Positions 1 through 57,272 of a stretch of 64,000 nt of DNA are shown here, piece by piece (the first letter of the stretch is position 1; each line of letters starts with the position of its first letter). Both the position numbers and the translations under genes were made by a program. The notes under the pieces were generated by a model. That model searched no databases and was not told the origin of the DNA. It saw only the letters and a list, made by a program, of their open reading frames with translations. The stretch is from Candidatus Omnitrophota bacterium (GTDB taxonomy: Bacteria > Omnitrophota > Omnitrophia > Omnitrophales > Aquincolibacteriaceae): NCBI GenBank assembly GCA_016196545.1, contig JACPXM010000036.1, positions 483 to 64,482 on the forward strand, given 5' to 3'.

Positions 1-566
1 GCCAGAAAACTTTCCACTTGTCCCCGCGGCCGCGCCGGTGCGCCCTCCACAATCGCAACGTATTCCTTTTGAAATTGGTTCCAGTGTTCCTGAAGCCACA
101 ACTTTACTTTTTCCGTTTTCGCAAAGACCAGAAGCCCGGAAACATCCCGGTCCAGGCGATGCACCACAAAAACCCTTTTTTGATATTCCGGGCGCCTCGT
201 ATTTTGAGCCGCCTTTTTATTCAAATAATCGTTGACGGCAAAAATTGCGGTTTCGCGCTGGATTTTATCGGTGGCAATCGTAAGCAGGCCGGCTGGTTTG
301 TTGATAACGAGTAACGTCTCGTCCTCAAAAATAATTTCAAGGTGGAATTGAAGCGCGGAAGTCGTGGCCCGTGCCACGGAAGTATCGAGCATAAGTTCAT
401 CTCCGGGCCGCAGCTGAAAATTAAATTGCGTGGTAATTCTGTGATTGACGGAAATACAGCCGTGCTTCAAATGCTGTTTCAGGCGGGTTCGCTTGATGTC
501 CGGCAGGGCGGCCATCAAAAAATCCAGTAGTTCCGCAACCTTTTCAATTCTAATGATCTTTTTCAC
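1..566 (-). CDS. RluA-family pseudouridine synthase, N-terminal part (C-terminus lies left of the window)
   Basis: Absent from the ORF track because it runs off the window edge. My minus-strand translation from GTG 566 reads VKKIIRIEKVAELLDFLMAALPDIKRTRLKQHL (S4-like N-terminus), then LLVINKPAGLLT and VVHRLDRDVSGLLVFAKT (HRLD catalytic-Asp motif of RluA-type synthases). The start is uncertain: GTG 566 or ATG 515. Confidence 0.8.
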   Translation of the reverse strand, partial: MKKIIRIEKVAELLDFLMAALPDIKRTRLKQHLKHGCISVNHRITTQFNFQLRPGDELMLDTSVARATTSALQFHLEIIFEDETLLVINKPAGLLTIATDKIQRETAIFAVNDYLNKKAAQNTRRPEYQKRVFVVHRLDRDVSGLLVFAKTEKVKLWLQEHWNQFQKEYVAIVEGAPARPRGQVESFL

Positions 567-642
567 AGACCTCTATATAGCACAGCCGGTGATTCATTTA
601 AAGATATGCTTCAAACTTGTGTCGAAGGAAGCCAATTAATGC

Positions 643-1003
643 GTGATTCACGACAGGGCCTGTCACGGGAACATCCCATCCGTGCTCGGAGGATTCCTGC
701 GCGCGGATGGGAGCCCTGTTCCCGTGCCACCCCTCGTGAATCACTTTTAATTTAAGGAGTCGATCGTGCCACAAGCCTCTCGCAGCCTTCGCCAAAAAAA
801 AGCGCGGGTGGCGCCGGGTTTTCTGTAAGGGAGAGGAGAAAAGCCCTTTCCCAAAAGCCACACTCCGTGGTGACTCCAGGCATCCGCAAAGCCGAGGGTT
901 GCCGGTGAACAGAACCAAACAATCCCGGATGGCTTGGACAATACTGAGTGCCTTTGCTTGGAAAAACCAACTGCTCCATGGGAAAGGGCTTTTCGACGAC
1001 TCC
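643..1003. ncRNA. Unassigned GC-rich structured noncoding region; candidate ncRNA(s) or MITE-like palindromic DNA, strand unresolved
   Basis: No credible ORF; the track ORFs here overlap each other in all frames. Rod 1 (643-744): GTGATTCACGA/TCGTGAATCAC, CACGGGAACA/TGTTCCCGTG and TCCCATCCG/CGGATGGGA are nested around a 21-nt loop. Rod 2: perfect 15-bp pairing of GAAAAGCCCTTTCCC (838-852) with GGGAAAGGGCTTTTC (980-994), enclosing further nested pairings (CATCCG/CGGATG, CCAC/GTGG). GGAGTCG (756-762) pairs with CGACTCC (997-1003). The region looks visibly more GC-rich than its flanks. Confidence 0.35.
794..814 (-). terminator. Intrinsic-terminator-like hairpin plus U-run (minus strand) inside the structured region
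   Basis: The minus strand reads GCGC-CACCC-GCGC followed by TTTTTTTT. The stem is only 4 bp, so this is weak. Confidence 0.3.
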
Positions 1004-1060
1004 CTGGGAAAACTCGGCGACGGGTCCCGCGCGATTATCGCTAGAGAGCGCTGTATCCCC

Positions 1061-1089
1061 TTGACACATATTCTTTATATTGGCATACT
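1061..1089 (+). promoter_or_regulatory. Candidate sigma-70 promoter for hisI-trp operon
   Basis: TTGACA (1061-1066), a 17-nt spacer, then CATACT (1084-1089). It lies about 30 nt upstream of the hisI RBS AAAGGAG. Confidence 0.4.
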
Positions 1090-1117
1090 CGAACGCTTAA
1101 ACCCAAAGGAGTTAGGA

Positions 1118-1495
1118 ATGATACCGTTTAAAACTAACGATAAAGGTCTCATTGCCTGTATCATTCAAGACGTAGATTCCGGTGAAGTTTTAATGCTGGC
1201 CTATATGGACAAAACTGCGATTGAACGCACCTTGAAGGAAAAAAAGACCGTTTTTTATTCGCGATCAAGGAATAAATACTGGGTAAAAGGCGAGGAATCG
1301 GGGCATATTCAGGAAGTGAAATCCGTATTCACCGACTGCGACCAGGACACTATTTTGATCAAGGTGAAGCAAACCGGCGGGGCCTGCCATTTGGGCTACC
1401 GCACCTGTTTTGTTCATGAATTGAATGAAGCCGGGGATGTCGCAAGAATCACGCAGGAAAAGGTATTTGATCCCGATAAAACCTATAAAAAATAA
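1118..1495 (+). CDS. hisI: Phosphoribosyl-AMP cyclohydrolase (monofunctional HisI)
   Basis: Internal ATG of track ORF 899..1495, preceded by AAAGGAG. The sequence [39 protein letters not shown]...[17 protein letters not shown]...[11 protein letters not shown]...[12 protein letters not shown] is typical of HisI. The 5' extension of the track ORF lies in the structured noncoding region. Confidence 0.9.
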
Positions 1496-1502
1496 CAAAC
1501 CT

Positions 1503-1541
1503 TACCGGTTCCAGGTTGCCGCCGGCAACCTGGAACCGGTA
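1503..1541. repeat. 39-nt perfect palindrome, copy 1 (REP-like element / bidirectional terminator hairpin)
   Basis: TACCGGTTCCAGGTTGCC-GCC-GGCAACCTGGAACCGGTA, an 18-bp stem, between the hisI stop and the trpE start. Confidence 0.85.
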
Positions 1542-1553
1542 GAATTATAAACG

Positions 1554-3003: not shown

Positions 3004-3042
3004 TACCGGTTCCAGGTTGCCGGCGGCAACCTGGAACCGGTA
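3004..3042. repeat. 39-nt palindrome, copy 2 (inverted relative to copy 1)
   Basis: TACCGGTTCCAGGTTGCC-GGC-GGCAACCTGGAACCGGTA. The arms are identical to copy 1 and the central triplet is GGC instead of GCC, meaning the opposite orientation. Flanked by extra GGTACC-containing imperfect repeats and a downstream T-run (GTTGTTTTTTGG), between trpE and trpG. Confidence 0.85.
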
Positions 3043-3082
3043 GAAGGACCGGGTACCGAGGGGTTGTTTTTTGGAGTGAGCG

Positions 3083-3665: not shown

Positions 3666-4700
3666 ATGAAAATTGAACCCTCCTTAAGCAATCTTATTCA
3701 AGGCCGCACCTTGCCGGAAGGCGAGGCCTATTCTCTTTTTCTGGAAATTTTTAAGGGGCACATTCCGGAGGCCGCCGTAAAGGCTATTTTGCTTCTCCTG
3801 GGCGCCAAAGGCGAAAGCTCCACGGAATTAAGCGGCTGCCTGAAGGCCTTGAGGGAGCTTGAAAAGCCCGAAAAACTTTCATGGCCAAAAGTGATTGACA
3901 CCTGCGGTACGGGAGGGGACGCAAAGGCGAGCGCCAATATCTCCACCCTCTCGGCCTTTGTGATCGCCGGCGCCGGCGCTCAAGTGGCCAAGCACGGGAA
4001 TCGTTCGATTTCCTCAAAATGCGGAAGCTCGGATTTGATGGAAGCCCTGGGTATTCGTCTGGATGCCCCTGCCACTCAAATGAAAAAAGCGATTCGCGAA
4101 TGCGGACTCGGCTATTTTCATGCGCCGTATTATCATCCGGTTTTTTCAAGGATGCAGCCGCTGCGTAAAAAACTCAAAACCCGCACACTTTTTAATATGC
4201 TGGGACCTTTGGCCAATCCCTACAAATTAAAGTATCAGATGATCGGCGTTTCACGGGCCGAATGGGTGCCTCTATTCGCCGAAGTCTTACGAAAAAATAA
4301 AATTCAAAGCGGCCTTGTGATTCACAGCCGGGATGGCATGGATGAAATATCCAGTGAAGTCCCAACCCAGGCGGCGTGGGTAAAGCAGGGGAGGATTCGT
4401 GCGGAATGGATAAAACCTAAGGCTATCCTTCATCCTGAGGCGAAGCCGAAGAATCTCAGGAGGACCCTAAAAATCAATAGCATCGCTAAAAATAAACAGA
4501 TCGCGTTAGCGGTTTTGCAAAACAAACTTTACGGTCCTATTCGCGATACCGTCTTAATCAACGCCGCTGCCGGCCTTGTCACGCTGGGAAAAGTAAAAAA
4601 TCTCAAGGAAGGGCTTCGAAGGGCCGATCAATCGCTTGTTTCGGGAAGGGCCTACCGCGTTTATCGGGAGCTGAAAAGGATTTCGCGTCAAAAATCATGA
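3666..4700 (+). CDS. trpD: Anthranilate phosphoribosyltransferase
   Basis: 344 aa. Motifs CGTGGDAKASANIST and KHGNRS. Confidence 0.92.
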   Translation: MKIEPSLSNLIQGRTLPEGEAYSLFLEIFKGHIPEAAVKAILLLLGAKGESSTELSGCLKALRELEKPEKLSWPKVIDTCGTGGDAKASANISTLSAFVIAGAGAQVAKHGNRSISSKCGSSDLMEALGIRLDAPATQMKKAIRECGLGYFHAPYYHPVFSRMQPLRKKLKTRTLFNMLGPLANPYKLKYQMIGVSRAEWVPLFAEVLRKNKIQSGLVIHSRDGMDEISSEVPTQAAWVKQGRIRAEWIKPKAILHPEAKPKNLRRTLKINSIAKNKQIALAVLQNKLYGPIRDTVLINAAAGLVTLGKVKNLKEGLRRADQSLVSGRAYRVYRELKRISRQKS

Positions 4701-17270: not shown

Positions 17271-17311
17271 CTACCGGTTCCAGGTTACCATCGACAACCT
17301 GGAACCGGTAG
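17271..17311. repeat. Palindrome family, copy 3 (variant loop)
   Basis: CTACCGGTTCCAGGTT-ACCATCGAC-AACCTGGAACCGGTAG, a 16-bp stem whose arms are identical to copies 1 and 2. It lies in the convergent gap after yqeY. Confidence 0.85.
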
Positions 17312-17320
17312 ATTAAGGGA

Positions 17321-29310: not shown

Positions 29311-29378
29311 GGGTCTCTAGTTTGTGATAGCGATAATATCGGCGAATTCAGGAGATAATGAAGGGGGGAATTTGAAAT

Positions 29379-29413
29379 AAAAAAACCCACCCCGTCCTTG
29401 CGGACAGGGTGGG
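29379..29413 (-). terminator. Intrinsic terminator after pilA
   Basis: The minus strand reads CCCACCCTGTCC-GCAA-GGACGGGGTGGG followed by TTTTTTTATTT. The single non-Watson-Crick position is a G-U pair only on the minus-strand RNA. Confidence 0.8.
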
Positions 29414-29436
29414 TTGAAAGACGAAAAGAAACCCGA

Positions 29437-29880
29437 CTATTTAATCGGAGTTCCCGTGCATCCCGTTGACGGGCAGGCACCACCGACATAAACAACGCCG
29501 GTATGATCCACGCCATAGTTGTTGCTGGCATCTGAAGTCGATGCCGCAGTTGCCATCATACCAAAGGTATTGCTGGCATTCGCATAGGCGAGGTTAAACC
29601 CGTGTTTGGGGTTGGTTGCCCAAGAAGCATCCAAATACGGGGGCGTTGCACCGGTCAATGTGGCAATGGTTGCCGCATAAGCCGGAGTGGACTGCGCCGC
29701 ACGATAGCTCTCATTGGCAGAGCTAAACGCGCGAAGGTCCGTCTTCATCGCACCTTCATTGGCATTCATTCTGGCGCGCAGAAGATTGGGAATGGCAATA
29801 GCGGCCAAGAGCCCAATAATCGCGACCACAATCATTATTTCAACGAGCGTGAAACCGCGTTGATTTAGTTTAATGAACAT
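29437..29880 (-). CDS. pilA: Type IV major pilin
   Basis: 147 aa. Prepilin leader and N-methylation site MFIKLNQRG/FTLVEIMIVVAIIGLLAAIAIPN. Confidence 0.93.
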   Translation of the reverse strand: MFIKLNQRGFTLVEIMIVVAIIGLLAAIAIPNLLRARMNANEGAMKTDLRAFSSANESYRAAQSTPAYAATIATLTGATPPYLDASWATNPKHGFNLAYANASNTFGMMATAASTSDASNNYGVDHTGVVYVGGACPSTGCTGTPIK

Positions 29881-30034
29881 CCTACACCTCCATGGTATTG
29901 TCGCGGCTAACTACAATTGAAGTATAACCCTAGTTTTGGACATCGGCAAATTCCAGGGAAACTAAATTTAATATTTCCAGTCTTGAAGTAGACTTTTCCA
30001 ATCCTTTAATAAACTTTCATTTCCTCTTTGAGGC

Positions 30035-43315: not shown

Positions 43316-43474
43316 TTTCATTGATGAATTACTTCTGCAAAGGGAGGTGGCGGTTTCGCCCCCGTCAGTAACTTTGGGTATCCGCCTCCAGTAAAATCTC
43401 AGCTCTGGAGGGGCATTATACCAAAAAACTTCCGCTCTCGCTAAGAAACCTTCACGAATCCGATCCTGAGGGTC
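43316..43474 (-). pseudogene. Relic A: internal fragment of a large-serine-recombinase gene (C-terminal region)
   Basis: The minus-strand translation DPQDRIREGFLARAEVFWYNAPPELRFYWRRIPKVTDGGETATSLCRSNSSMK aligns with residues NPQDRIRMREAFLAKCEVFCYNGRTEVRFSWRRVPKLAEGSDTGHLHHFSVNSSFK of the intact recombinase at 55425..57272. No start codon, truncated at both ends. Confidence 0.8.
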
Positions 43475-54676: not shown

Positions 54677-54863
54677 TCAGGAGGTGTAAGCCGGTTCGGA
54701 CGGTAAAGCAGGAATGTAATCGGTAGAAATTAAGACAAGTCGAGAGTCTTTATACTCATAGCTCTCAACTTCCAGAGGCTCGTTCTCGAACAACTGGTTT
54801 ACAATGAAAGTGGTGGAGGTGGGCGGTTTCGCCCCCGTCCGTATCTTTAGGAATCCGAAAATT
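54677..54863 (-). pseudogene. Relic B: frameshifted 3' end of a large-serine-recombinase gene
   Basis: The minus-strand translation reads NFRIPKDTDGGETAHLHHF. After a +1 shift it continues IVNQLFENEPLEVESYEYKDSRLVLISTDYIPALPSEPAYTS-stop. This aligns with RRVPKLAEGSDTGHLHHFSVNSSFKDEDLELERYVYENSQLILIERGQDA-stop of the intact recombinase. Homology ends abruptly at about 54863. Confidence 0.8.
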
Positions 54864-54908: not shown

Positions 54909-55163
54909 TCATGATTTTATTTGAGTTTCTAACTTCTCATAGAGCGACTCAGGGGCAACGTCAGCGCCATTGGGCCAAGAAATCGTTCCCCCTTCGATAC
55001 GTGCGGAAGAAAAGACTTTTTTGTCTTTGAGCGAAGAAAATATTCCGGATCTGCTTAGATACGAGGAGAAATCGATTTCACCCTTCATCCCATCATCGAA
55101 TTCGATATAGTAAATATATCCATCAAGATATCGAATCATTTTGACATCGTTTAATTGCCACAT
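54909..55163 (-). CDS. DUF2442 protein
   Basis: 84 aa. YIEFDDGMKGEIDFS...GGTISWPNGADVAPESLY is the typical DUF2442 pattern. Confidence 0.85.
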   Translation of the reverse strand: MWQLNDVKMIRYLDGYIYYIEFDDGMKGEIDFSSYLSRSGIFSSLKDKKVFSSARIEGGTISWPNGADVAPESLYEKLETQIKS

Positions 55164-55171
55164 AAGTCACC

Positions 55172-55432
55172 TCATTCCAAAGGCGTGATTTTCCTGATCT
55201 CTTTGTCCTTGCGCGCCAGCTCCCAATCCTCCGCCAACTCAGCTTGATGCAGATCAACCCATTCCCGCACAAGTCTCAAAGCCGTCCTCGACCCAAGATC
55301 ACCCATAAGAATGTTACCATGAAAATCTATCTTTGCTTGCTTGCCGCTGAACTCGGCATGAAAATGCGGGGGATTATGATCGTCGTAAAACATGCGAATA
55401 ATGATACCGAAGAATCGAGAAATTTCAGGCAT
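55172..55432 (-). CDS. DUF4160 protein
   Basis: MPEISRFFGIIIRMFYDDHNPPHFHAEF is the typical DUF4160 N-terminus. The ATG at 55432 overlaps the recombinase stop in ATGCCTGA. The track ORF starts 5 codons earlier. Confidence 0.85.
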   Translation of the reverse strand: MPEISRFFGIIIRMFYDDHNPPHFHAEFSGKQAKIDFHGNILMGDLGSRTALRLVREWVDLHQAELAEDWELARKDKEIRKITPLE

Positions 55433-57272
55433 CTTGACCTCGTTCAATCAAAATAAGTTGAGAATTTTCGTACACATATCTTTCGAGTTCTAAGTCCTCA
55501 TCCTTAAATGATGAGTTTACCGAAAAGTGGTGGAGGTGGCCGGTGTCGCTCCCCTCCGCAAGTTTAGGAACCCTTCGCCATGAGAACCTGACCTCTGTTC
55601 GGCCATTATAACAAAAGACTTCGCACTTGGCTAAGAAAGCTTCGCGCATGCGAATCCGATCTTGTGGGTTACCAATCACCACAACCTTTTGCGCCTCTGC
55701 CAGCCTTTCAAGAAATTGGCCCACTTCGGTGTCGATATTGACAGCGACCGTGGTGTGTCCGGTTGCGATCAATCCGTCCCGCTGAGCTTCCAACGTTTTC
55801 TGTCGACCCTTTAACTCTGTGACTTTATCTTCAGGTAAAGGCGTCTCAAATTTGGTGTATGCAAGGATCATGCGATCGATCTCTTTGGTAACCGACCTAA
55901 GTTCTTTTTCAATTTGCGCAAGCCGATCCGGTTTTGCGTCAAGGAAGCGGCGCATTTTTCGCTCAAGCAATTCCTTTACCTTCTCAGGCCGTATGAGATG
56001 TTGAATCCGATCCAAAATCCCATTCATAACCCTTTGATTAATAGCGTCCTGCTTCATCATCAGATTCTTGGTATCTCTGGCATGAGTCCCTTTATGTTTA
56101 TCACCTGAACATCGATAAAATTCATCAAACACGGTTTCGCCCGTGGTTTTAATAATACGCGCATATCGATGGCCATGAAAGCGGTTTCCACAAAAGCAGA
56201 CGAGCGCTCCGGCCATCAGATATTTCGTTCCGTTCATTCTTTTCCACTTTTTGCTCGAATATGATTGGAAGCGGCCTTGAACAGCGTCAAAAACTTCAGG
56301 CGAGATAATCTGCGGCACCTTTCCTTCGATCACAATCCATTCTTCTTTCGGCTTTATGCGGTCAATGAAAAATTCTAAGTCCGCACGATCAATACCCCGG
56401 TCTTTATTTTTGCGAAAAGAAGCTGTCTCGGTTCTTAACTTGCCTATTTTTACTGTTCCTTGCCCTTGCATTTGCCAGTCAAAGCAATCGACCCTCGCTC
56501 GTTTATTCCATCGAGTAACTCCCTTATAGACCGGATTCCTCAAAATTGCCCGCACCGTATAGCACGACCATCGACCGTCAGGGTTTCGATTGTGAGCGCT
56601 GTTTCTTTTCCGGGCATTCTCGCCGGATGGAATGCCTTGCTGATTAAGCCAGATCGCTATACTCTTATGTCCCCACCCCTTCAGCGACAGATCGAATATT
56701 ATTCGCACCACTTTTGCCTCCGGTTCGTAAATAATCAGCCATGTGCAATCGCTTGCATCTTTCGTTTTTCGAAACCCATAAGGCGTTACGCCGCCGACCC
56801 AACACCCCATTCTTGCTTTTCGCATCATTCCCTGAACGACTTTGCGTGCAAGTTCTCTGGAATAATCTGCTGCCATTTGACGAGCAACTGATTTATAAAT
56901 TTCGTCTGCAGAGCTCCCGTCATTTTTCAGATTTGTGAAATGAAGCTCTATTCCGAGGTCATCAAGCAAAACTTCATACCTCATCGCTTCTTTAACATCG
57001 CGCATGAAGCGATCATATTCGCCAAAAATAATCATTTGAAAGGGGCATGAAGGCGATTGCGCATCCTTCACCATTTGATGAAATACGCTTCGTTTTCTAA
57101 TCGACTTGCCACTAACAGGTTCTTCATATCGTTTAACAATTTGTGCCGGGTGCCTCCGGGCATAATCCAGAATTTCAAATTGCTGGCGCTCAAAGGAACC
57201 CTCCTGACGTTCGCAACCGTTTTCATCCTTGCCCGAAGTTGACTTACGAAGGTATACACCGGCGTTCTTCAT
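55425..57272 (-). CDS. Large serine recombinase (integrase)
   Basis: 615 aa. Catalytic N-terminus GVYLRKSTSG...RQ, a recombinase domain, a zinc-ribbon-like CFCGNRFHGHRY...YRCSGDKHKG, and a long coiled coil. Confidence 0.92.
   Translation of the reverse strand: MKNAGVYLRKSTSGKDENGCERQEGSFERQQFEILDYARRHPAQIVKRYEEPVSGKSIRKRSVFHQMVKDAQSPSCPFQMIIFGEYDRFMRDVKEAMRYEVLLDDLGIELHFTNLKNDGSSADEIYKSVARQMAADYSRELARKVVQGMMRKARMGCWVGGVTPYGFRKTKDASDCTWLIIYEPEAKVVRIIFDLSLKGWGHKSIAIWLNQQGIPSGENARKRNSAHNRNPDGRWSCYTVRAILRNPVYKGVTRWNKRARVDCFDWQMQGQGTVKIGKLRTETASFRKNKDRGIDRADLEFFIDRIKPKEEWIVIEGKVPQIISPEVFDAVQGRFQSYSSKKWKRMNGTKYLMAGALVCFCGNRFHGHRYARIIKTTGETVFDEFYRCSGDKHKGTHARDTKNLMMKQDAINQRVMNGILDRIQHLIRPEKVKELLERKMRRFLDAKPDRLAQIEKELRSVTKEIDRMILAYTKFETPLPEDKVTELKGRQKTLEAQRDGLIATGHTTVAVNIDTEVGQFLERLAEAQKVVVIGNPQDRIRMREAFLAKCEVFCYNGRTEVRFSWRRVPKLAEGSDTGHLHHFSVNSSFKDEDLELERYVYENSQLILIERGQDA

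Follow-up and report, generated by a model that had tools for sequence, protein, structure and literature searches.

An undescribed family of rod-shaped structured elements of about 200 nt, most likely RNAs, at the his/trp junction of a few Omnitrophota

REP, REPIN and BIME sequences (RAYT-associated) are extragenic imperfect palindromes that lie at gene ends and whose asymmetric bulges set their orientation; they occur in both orientations and in small clusters, are patchy among relatives and are tied to rearrangements. MITEs are small, non-coding units with inverted-repeat ends that fold into a hairpin over their whole length and show presence/absence polymorphism. Integron attC sites possess a conserved basal stem with extrahelical bases, an unpaired spacer and a variable terminal structure; their structure is kept over their sequence, their folding is strand-specific and they may form arrays. 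Among rod-shaped RNAs, 6S RNA (Rfam RF00013) measures about 200 nt and is built of an irregular helix with internal loops, and in bacterial Y RNA-type or protein-scaffold RNAs the ends pair into a bulged basal stem below a variable apex. These properties recur in an element that is described here from the Omnitrophota, an uncultured and poorly understood phylum; to our knowledge almost none of its non-coding RNA biology has been described.

The element was analysed within a stretch of 64 kb (64,000 nt), referred to in its entirety as the window, in which a gene-free region upstream of hisI had originally been predicted to fold into two long rods. The results point to an undescribed family of structured elements of about 200 nt, most likely RNAs, at the his/trp junction. 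A literature search returned nothing relevant.

Table 1. Coordinates of the features in the window and of the homologues within L041, L089 and L094.
Feature	Position	Strand	Basis
5' part of RluA-family pseudouridine synthase gene	1..566	-	Pfam PF00849 and S4 domain
Rod 1, extended hairpin (core 643-744)	616..775	-	helix search and fold
A8 run (minus-strand T8) directly 5' of rod 2	794..801		terminator-like site search
Rod 2, full family member	802..1032	+ (sense = plus)	folds, homologues, covariation
Basal module, 5' arm: P1 802-808, U809, P2 810-825, loop, P3 828-833	802..833	+	structure-based alignments
Purine-rich internal loop, 5' side AGGA; partner GACGA 995-999	834..837	+	alignment
P4, 5' strand; perfect 16-bp helix with 979-994	838..853	+	helix search
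Variable apical domain	854..978	+	length and branching differ between copies
3' arm: P4 979-994, loop GACGA 995-999, P3 1000-1005, P2 1006-1021 (A1020 opposite G811), GGG bulge 1022-1024, P1 1026-1032	979..1032	+	structure-based alignments
hisI upstream region and promoter, kept	1041..1092	+	promoter search; BLAST; relatives
hisI (PRA-CH), opens the hisI-trpE... operon; right neighbour of the element	1118..1495	+	Pfam PF01502
Homologue in L041	3564-3740	-	fold inspection, arm profiles, covariance model
Homologue in L089	1225-1403	-	close hisI protein, covariance model
Homologue in L094	73-278	+	covariance model

The gap upstream of hisI and its fold

The structured region occupies a gap of 551 nt between two divergent genes. 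On the left this is an rluA-like gene with a GTG start at 566 on the minus strand, whose product is 100% identical to P0001 (297 aa, from a 64,482-nt contig of a Ca. Omnitrophica MAG that the window covers almost completely); on the right it is hisI, which is followed by trpE, trpG and the remaining trp operon (Table 1). The G+C content of the gap region was 55% compared to 48% for the whole window. As originally described, positions 600-1060 were found to be gene-free and strongly structured on both strands (z about -8); none of the ORFs inside 598-1069 had a Pfam match and none was hydrophobic or toxin-like. An independent Logan assembly (L082, run SRR12113416) was 100% identical over window positions 1-1468, which rules out an artefact of assembly. 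The hisI and trpE proteins of the window were not on record in an exact-protein look-up, and the closest relative of the rluA-like gene, which is 65% identical, had other neighbours and an unstructured upstream gap (L083).

Synteny of hisI and trpE is kept in 47 Omnitrophota loci, in which the gene upstream of hisI is usually hisF on the same strand, across a gap of ~100-130 nt. As hisD, hisB, hisH, hisA and hisF were not found anywhere in the 64-kb window, the break in synteny coincides precisely with the structured region. The promoter of hisI, TTGACA (1061) and CATACT (1089) at a spacing of 17 nt, recurred in L041, L089 and L094, the three assemblies that carry homologues of the element. 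Positions 1052-1092 were the sole part of the gap that BLAST found upstream of hisI in ~20 related genomes, and positions 1041-1060 aligned with the sequence after the hisF stop codon in L090, which is free of the element; this upstream region of hisI lies outside the element and sets its right-hand limit. Because the structured region is located upstream of the promoter it is not a long structured leader of hisI, as had been suggested, and in L041 and L089 the element is in addition inverted. A T-box leader was rejected on the same grounds of position and orientation, together with the lack of an Rfam hit and the location of the GGGUGGC motif at the 5' base rather than in a 3' antiterminator. 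One gene call stretches hisI by 63 codons over the rod, and the hisF call of L094 runs into the element.

For the 461-nt region (600-1060) the minimum free energy was -206.9 (plus strand) and -204.7 kcal/mol (minus strand), compared to about -155 to -160 kcal/mol for dinucleotide shuffles (z = -8.0 and -7.4, respectively), and none of 100 shuffles folded as well. When the whole window was scanned, 601-800 was the strongest structural outlier of the minus strand and ranked within the first three for the plus strand. A second structured outlier at 29.3-29.75 kb was rejected as an RNA, being a small pilin gene and its terminator. Both strands fold because nearly all pairs in the rods are Watson-Crick.

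Every helix listed in the original prediction was present in the helix search, including those of rod 1 (643-653/734-744, perfect over 11 bp; 661-673/717-729; 674-685/701-712), but the extents given for both rods were too short (Table 1). The closing helix of rod 2 is perfect as stated and comprises 16 rather than 15 bp, while its proposed extension (756-762/997-1003) is unused in the minimum free energy structure and unsupported by the homologues. The CATCCG/CGGATG helix shared by both rods is real but trivial: overall similarity between rods 1 and 2, and between these and rod A, a second hairpin of L041 and L089, was at chance level. The A8 run and rod 2 together make up a terminator-like site on the minus strand (815-801 plus T8), which exists as reported but at chance frequency (1 such site found, 1.4 expected). 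It is absent beside the homologues: no hairpin with a U-tract adjoins the copies of L041, L089 or L094, an A8-type run marks no fixed end of the element in them, and the single terminator-like match in L041 (3783-3764, minus strand) lies in the spacer upstream of rod B. No known RNA was recognised, in agreement with the original prediction. Rfam 15 was empty at the gathering score and at E ≤ 10 for window positions 450-1250, for L089 and for L041 3400-4100, and ARAGORN reported neither tRNA nor tmRNA.

Anatomy, homologues and covariation

Rod 2 is bounded by terminal inverted repeats (GCGCGGG...CCCGCGC, 802-808/1026-1032) that are followed by imperfectly complementary arms, and the length of the element ranges over 177-231 nt. 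Its base is common to all copies. It starts with P1 of ~7 bp (GCGCGGG/CCCGCGC or covarying variants), then a U opposite U/A, a 3-nt GGG/AGG bulge on the 3' strand and a G-C pair followed by a G·A mismatch; P2 and P3 consist of 13-14 and 6 pairs, respectively. In the adjoining internal loop both arms of the sense strand are rich in purines, and each of the four full copies has (G)AGGA on the 5' side and GA(C/G)GA on the 3' side. P4, of 15-16 bp and cut to 6 bp in L094, is retained in L041 and L089 despite changes on both sides at 6 of its 16 positions; the window helix GAAAAGCCCUUUCCCA/UGGGAAAGGGCUUUUC, for example, corresponds to AAAAUACUUUUCUUA/UAAGAAAAGUAUUUU in L041. The apical domain spans ~64-114 nt across the copies as judged from folds (the interior between the P4 arms of the window is 125 nt); its fold is a short rod in the L041 copy and has three branches in that of L094.

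On its minus strand, rod 1 carries a basal module of the family type, GGGGUGGCAC...GUGACAGG-CCC, that fits 18 of 19 consensus pairs and has the same G·A mismatch and the same AGG bulge. Comparison of the sequences thus suggests that rod 1 is a second family member and that the window holds two, head to head; because its covariance model score is only 17 bits (E 0.03-0.5) this membership is probable and not proven. A small conserved ORF behind a GGAG motif upstream of the copies was considered and discarded, as the frame across GCGGGUGGC differs between copies.

Three further Omnitrophota assemblies have a homologue of rod 2 at the same site, after the hisF stop codon and ahead of the hisI promoter, and four full copies from three lineages are known. 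The unusually large hisF-hisI gap of L041 is as structured as the gap of the window, and the hairpin that was found there by inspection of the fold has the layout of rod 2 with different helix sequences. In 687 kb of sequence, profiles of the arms had no match besides the window and L041 (E of about 1e-14 to 1e-17). L089, reached through a hisI close to that of L041 (98% amino-acid identity), carries a further, different copy, and the fourth copy, in L094, was found by a covariance model of three copies (E = 3e-4). Covariance model R1 scored the homologues at 110, 101 and 30.7 bits, the last being L094; the model with trimmed interior cannot span the 125-nt interior of the window copy, which scores on P4 only (28.5 bits).

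The element was absent at this site in L090 and L091 (92% identity to L041, by hisI), in L092 and L093 (87%) and in other close contigs, as well as from the hisF-hisI junction of ~45 related Omnitrophota and ~490 kb of flanks. As it is missing from most relatives at the same site, the element is either dispensable or mobile. Within the 64-kb window no copy beyond the two rods was detected by BLAST, a repeat finder or the unfiltered covariance model. Pattern scans of viral contigs gave chance matches in coding DNA only, phage and plasmid collections gave no BLASTN match, and a DNA-pattern scan of metagenomes with the two P4 arms gave only a chance match in low-complexity DNA (L081). Discovery of homologues was anchored on hisI, and ~76 kb of carrier genomes were inspected, of which ~12 kb came from the other carriers. 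A different family of REP-like palindromes is also present in the genome of the window, where the 64 kb contain 3 copies of it.

Alignment of the orthologous regions revealed compensatory substitutions. The pair counts are upper estimates, as the sequences are few and the alignments were fitted manually to the structure, which inflates such counts: changes on both sides were observed for 24 of 36 pairs in a five-sequence alignment of the base and for 18 of 50 pairs in a three-copy alignment of the full arms. In the basal alignment 91.3% of cells were paired compared to 70.9% in shuffles and at most 51% in slid registers, and none of 500 shuffles matched the observed pairing; in the full-arm alignment 91.8% of cells were paired against 79% in shuffles. 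By contrast, the model detected the L094 copy independently. The basal arms of the window are 55-70% identical to those of the other lineages, compared to only 44-46% at third-codon positions of hisI, which indicates that the element is under constraint. Between L041 and L089, DNA identity is 89-90% in hisF and hisI, 97.8% in rod A and 94% in the shared 3' arm region. Template switching at quasipalindromes could, without selection, yield some of the changes that appear compensatory.

The strand had been left open in the original prediction, and the present analysis favours the plus strand as the sense strand of rod 2. Among consensus pairs on the sense strand the ratio of G·U to A·C was 7:0, and in each of the four copies the sense strand, as defined by homology, exceeded its complement in stability by 8.7-14.8 kcal/mol, with both strands folding strongly (-50 to -115 kcal/mol). 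A single-stranded-DNA hairpin would fit this strand preference equally. Retention of the AGG bulge, the G·A mismatch and the purine loop on both arms argues for a folded single strand and against double-stranded terminal repeats. The sense strand runs in the direction of hisI in the window and L094 and opposite to it in L041 and L089. Comparison of the copies indicates that the same strand is preferred in each of them and that the element is independent of its orientation to hisI. No conserved promoter or terminator was found on the sense strand beside the copies of the window, L041, L089 and L094.

The two inverted carriers also document turnover. L041 carries a full copy, B, and an orphan 3' arm, X'; in L089 the orphan is a 3' arm of the B type, and X' is the 3' arm of the full copy, B'. 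From these reciprocal remnants it follows that the ancestor had two tandem copies that had already diverged, and the sequences indicate that L041 lost one of them and L089 the other, by deletion at short direct repeats, with one kept intact in each. Co-resident copies (B and B', rods 1 and 2) are strongly diverged and each still forms a good hairpin; as judged from their sequences they are old copies held in shape and not recent transpositions. No direct repeat that would represent a target-site duplication flanks the copies of the window, L041 and L094, and B' of L089 alone has GCAAAA on both sides.

Readings of the element

The structure itself is real, with homologues in three other assemblies, pairs that covary and unpaired motifs that are kept. 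The kept fold with its asymmetric motifs, the strand bias, the intact yet diverged copies and the reciprocal loss favour an autonomous RNA with a partner-binding base. We therefore read rod 2, tentatively, as a novel self-contained structured RNA that probably binds protein, and of the options raised in the original prediction a novel ncRNA is the best supported, given the homologues with compensatory changes. Rod 2 would be one copy of an RNA of ~180-230 nt whose transcript folds into a single long rod. The conserved base (P1, the U/AGG asymmetric loop, the G·A mismatch, P2, P3 and the purine-rich internal loop) would be the functional part, most likely a platform for protein binding, and the apical domain would be free to vary. 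Being autonomous, the unit would tolerate sitting either way round between the his and hisI-trp gene blocks, where it would duplicate in tandem and lose redundant copies. Transcription of the element, the promoter and 3' end that it would use, its function as RNA rather than as single-stranded DNA and the binding of a protein to its base are what we infer from these comparisons.

Much of the same evidence bears on a rival that is unlikely but has to be taken seriously, namely that the rods are selfish, non-autonomous hairpin DNA of the REP/REPIN or MITE kind. Such DNA would be recognised as a folded single strand, for instance by a RAYT or IS200-IS605-type Y1 transposase, and would insert or recombine either way round at a hot spot between the hisF stop codon and the hisI promoter, forming small clusters. 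Stacked MITE-like elements had also been proposed originally, and several traits fit this: two members adjoin in the window, the distribution is patchy even among close relatives (L041 and L089 with the element, L090, L091 and L092 without), both orientations occur at the same site, tandem copies and partial, orphan arms are bounded by microhomologies and synteny in the window breaks exactly at the element. The kept ends of the basal stem around a variable interior resemble terminal inverted repeats plus cargo, the genome has a REP-like family besides, the strand asymmetry is compatible with recognition of single-stranded DNA, and a hisI-anchored search could have missed dispersed copies in the carriers. 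What does not agree with this origin is the lack of target-site duplications and of any further copy in the 64 kb, in the ~490 kb of related loci and in the viral, phage and plasmid collections, as well as the divergence of neighbouring copies in one genome, which are still paired and far from near-identical. In fact, pairing is kept at ~91% through compensatory change while synonymous sites are near saturation, a state in which dead MITEs would have decayed, and a unit of 180-230 nt far exceeds known REP or REPIN units.

Less likely readings assign the rods a role tied to the neighbouring genes or to a known RNA. A cis-acting hairpin of the his/trp transcripts, acting as a 3' UTR or intercistronic stabiliser of hisF, a terminator or an insulator, would account for the constant position between hisF stop codon and hisI promoter, for the L094 copy directly after hisF on the coding strand and for the strong folding of both strands (-50 to -115 kcal/mol), by which either orientation still gives a hairpin; the rod followed by U8 on the minus strand of the window even looks like an intrinsic terminator. 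It is nevertheless improbable, as the window lacks an upstream his gene on which the hairpin could act as stabiliser or terminator, the U-tract belongs to a strand with nothing to terminate and is not conserved, ~45 relatives handle the same junction in ~100 nt without the element, and a generic role leaves the orientation-specific bulges and the GA-rich loop unexplained. Opposite orientations at one site in related lineages, terminal inverted repeats and a position directly upstream of a promoter could also describe an inverton, flipped by a recombinase at the GCGCGGG/CCCGCGC repeats so that the hisI-trp operon varies in phase, and a large serine recombinase is indeed encoded on the contig at 55425-57272. 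We consider this very unlikely: the recombinase is 54 kb away in a seemingly unrelated integrated element, the differences in orientation are between diverged species, no promoter was detected inside the element, and pairing and covariation extend along the whole rod rather than only its ends. Least credible is the 6S-like RNA of the original prediction, a divergent open-promoter mimic that would sequester RNA polymerase. Rod 2 is an irregular rod of ~230 nt with a long closing helix, as such an RNA would be, but neither the window nor L041 or L089 matched an Rfam 6S model at E ≤ 10. The interior (64-114 nt), where the central bubble is expected, varies in size and branching, conservation is confined to the base of the rod, whose basal third contains the conserved loops, and the element is absent here from most relatives and occurs in tandem or partial copies.

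It is possible, and somewhat doubtful, that the element stands for a structured nucleic-acid unit of a new class, autonomous and independent of orientation, either a stable rod RNA that scaffolds or sequesters protein and has a K-turn-like base or a new kind of large single-strand hairpin element that targets one intergenic site. With the same reserve, such a unit would duplicate, invert and be reciprocally lost at the his/trp junction while selection maintains its fold.

Comparison with known systems

Compared to 6S RNA, the element has no covariance model match and no kept central bubble, is conserved at its base, is missing at this site from most relatives and occurs in tandem and partial copies. 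Resemblance to Y RNA-type scaffolds lies in the layout of the rod; no Rfam Y RNA matched, and we know of no rsr (Ro) gene near the element. In K-turn RNAs a regular helix is followed by a 3-nt bulge and then by G·A and A·G pairs, so that one strand reads ...GA-[helix] and the other [helix]-NNN-GA.... Like these, the element has a GA-rich internal loop beside a regular helix with a tandem G·A sequence pattern, and on inspection of the sequences the loop fits the K-turn sequence rule in all four copies, as (G)AGGA before P4 and GA(C/G)GA between P4 and P3. The loop may accordingly form tandem G·A pairs in a K-turn-like or loop-E-like arrangement. If the element is an RNA, a covarying rod of ~200 nt with non-canonical loops and without an Rfam family would constitute a new RNA family, and its conserved base would be a concrete, testable site of protein binding. 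In either case gene callers misread the region, and annotation of the family would correct the models of hisI and of the L094 hisF.

Among DNA elements, integron attC sites differ in their RYYYAAC/GTTRRRY core, which the element lacks, and in length (57-141 nt compared to 177-231 nt); no integrase or cassettes lie near the element, and it occurs in both orientations at one site. From MITEs the element differs in lacking target-site duplications and, within the 64 kb, dispersed copies; compensatory evolution along the whole stem and a purine loop on two arms also set it apart from them. As in REP, REPIN and BIME sequences, palindromes clustered in both orientations with kept asymmetry were found, namely rods 1 (minus) and 2 (plus) and the tandem full and partial copies of L041 and L089. 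The element differs from them in the lack of dispersed copies in 64 kb, in its diverged neighbours, in its long variable apex and in the size of its unit, 180-230 nt compared to about 35-110 nt. If it is hairpin DNA, it would mark a recombination hot spot that broke his-trp synteny in this genome and would extend REP/REPIN-type elements to much larger, strongly site-preferring units.

Gene calls and a second hairpin upstream of hisI

The region around the rod-2-type element is misread by gene callers. In an independent Logan assembly identical to window 1-1468 (L082), hisI was started at an upstream ATG (position 929), which added 63 codons spanning rod 2, unlike the NCBI call, a protein of 125 aa. 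In L094, one of the related Omnitrophota loci that carry a full copy of the element, the hisF frame was stop-free until about 50 codons inside it.

A further hairpin of 134 nt, rod A, separates the family copy from the hisI promoter in two other such loci, L041 and L089. Compared with rod 1 and rod 2, rod A showed no significant similarity to either. The L041 and L089 versions differ at 3 positions only (97.8% identity), as opposed to 89-90% for hisF and hisI, and this level of conservation therefore reflects either strong constraint on the hairpin itself or recent exchange.

Features by location (L041, L089, L090 and L094 are related Omnitrophota loci)
Feature	Location	Strand	Remark
Misread hisI call	window 929-1495 (L082 1-540)		
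hisF reading frame entering element	L094 3-209		
Rod A	L041 3787-3920; L089 1505-1638		134-nt hairpin
hisI-trp promoter region	window 1041-1092; L041 3921-3965; L094 283-324; L090 about 3915-3960		
REP-like palindromes	window 1503-1544, 3004-3045, 17272-17313		
Type IV pilin-like gene	window 29437-29880	minus	147 aa; N-terminal FTLVEIMIVV motif
50-nt repeats	window 43334-43383, 54807-54856, 55524-55573		
Genes at the 50-nt repeats	window 54909-55447 and 55425-57272		

The hisI-trp promoter and its surroundings

Across Omnitrophota the hisI-trp promoter is conserved as TTGACA-17-(C/G)ATA(C/A)T. A palindrome of the TGTGT...ACACA type (for example GGAGTGTGTCCCCTTGACACACTCTCC in L094) encloses the -35 box, which suggests an operator recognised by a dimeric regulator. 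The Logan contigs L095 and L096, each from a different run and with a hisI 89% identical to that of L041, both begin exactly 118 nt upstream of the gene. Within these 118 positions the sequence differs, a terminator-like hairpin is present and the TTGACAC promoter block is absent. This coincident break point could indicate that a repeat or structural variant lies just upstream.

Downstream of the promoter, near-perfect REP-like palindromes of 39-42 nt (TACCGGTTCCAGGTTGCCGNCGGCAACCTGGAACCGGTA) were observed in the window at the hisI-trpE and trpE-trpG junctions and again at 17.27 kb. Spurious ORFs with a common peptide, YRFQVAAGNLEPV, arise from these palindromes. Insertions of 80-180 nt between hisI and trpE were found in some relatives (L029, L035, L037 and L042) and in most relatives there were none.

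Other structured and repeated sequences in the window

An apparent 725-nt gene-free, structured and G+C-rich gap at 29311-30034 was rejected as a candidate, as it contains the pilin-like gene followed by a strong terminator hairpin at about 29385-29415.

The window also holds a second repeat family with a 50-nt unit, the copies of which are 70-84% identical. Two copies lie 717 nt apart, with two short ORFs (84 and 91 aa) between them. At its 3' end, a 615-aa ORF overlaps with one of the copies. Judged by sequence, the repeats and adjoining ORFs resemble the boundary of an integrated mobile element, and the N-terminus of the 615-aa ORF looks like that of a large serine recombinase.
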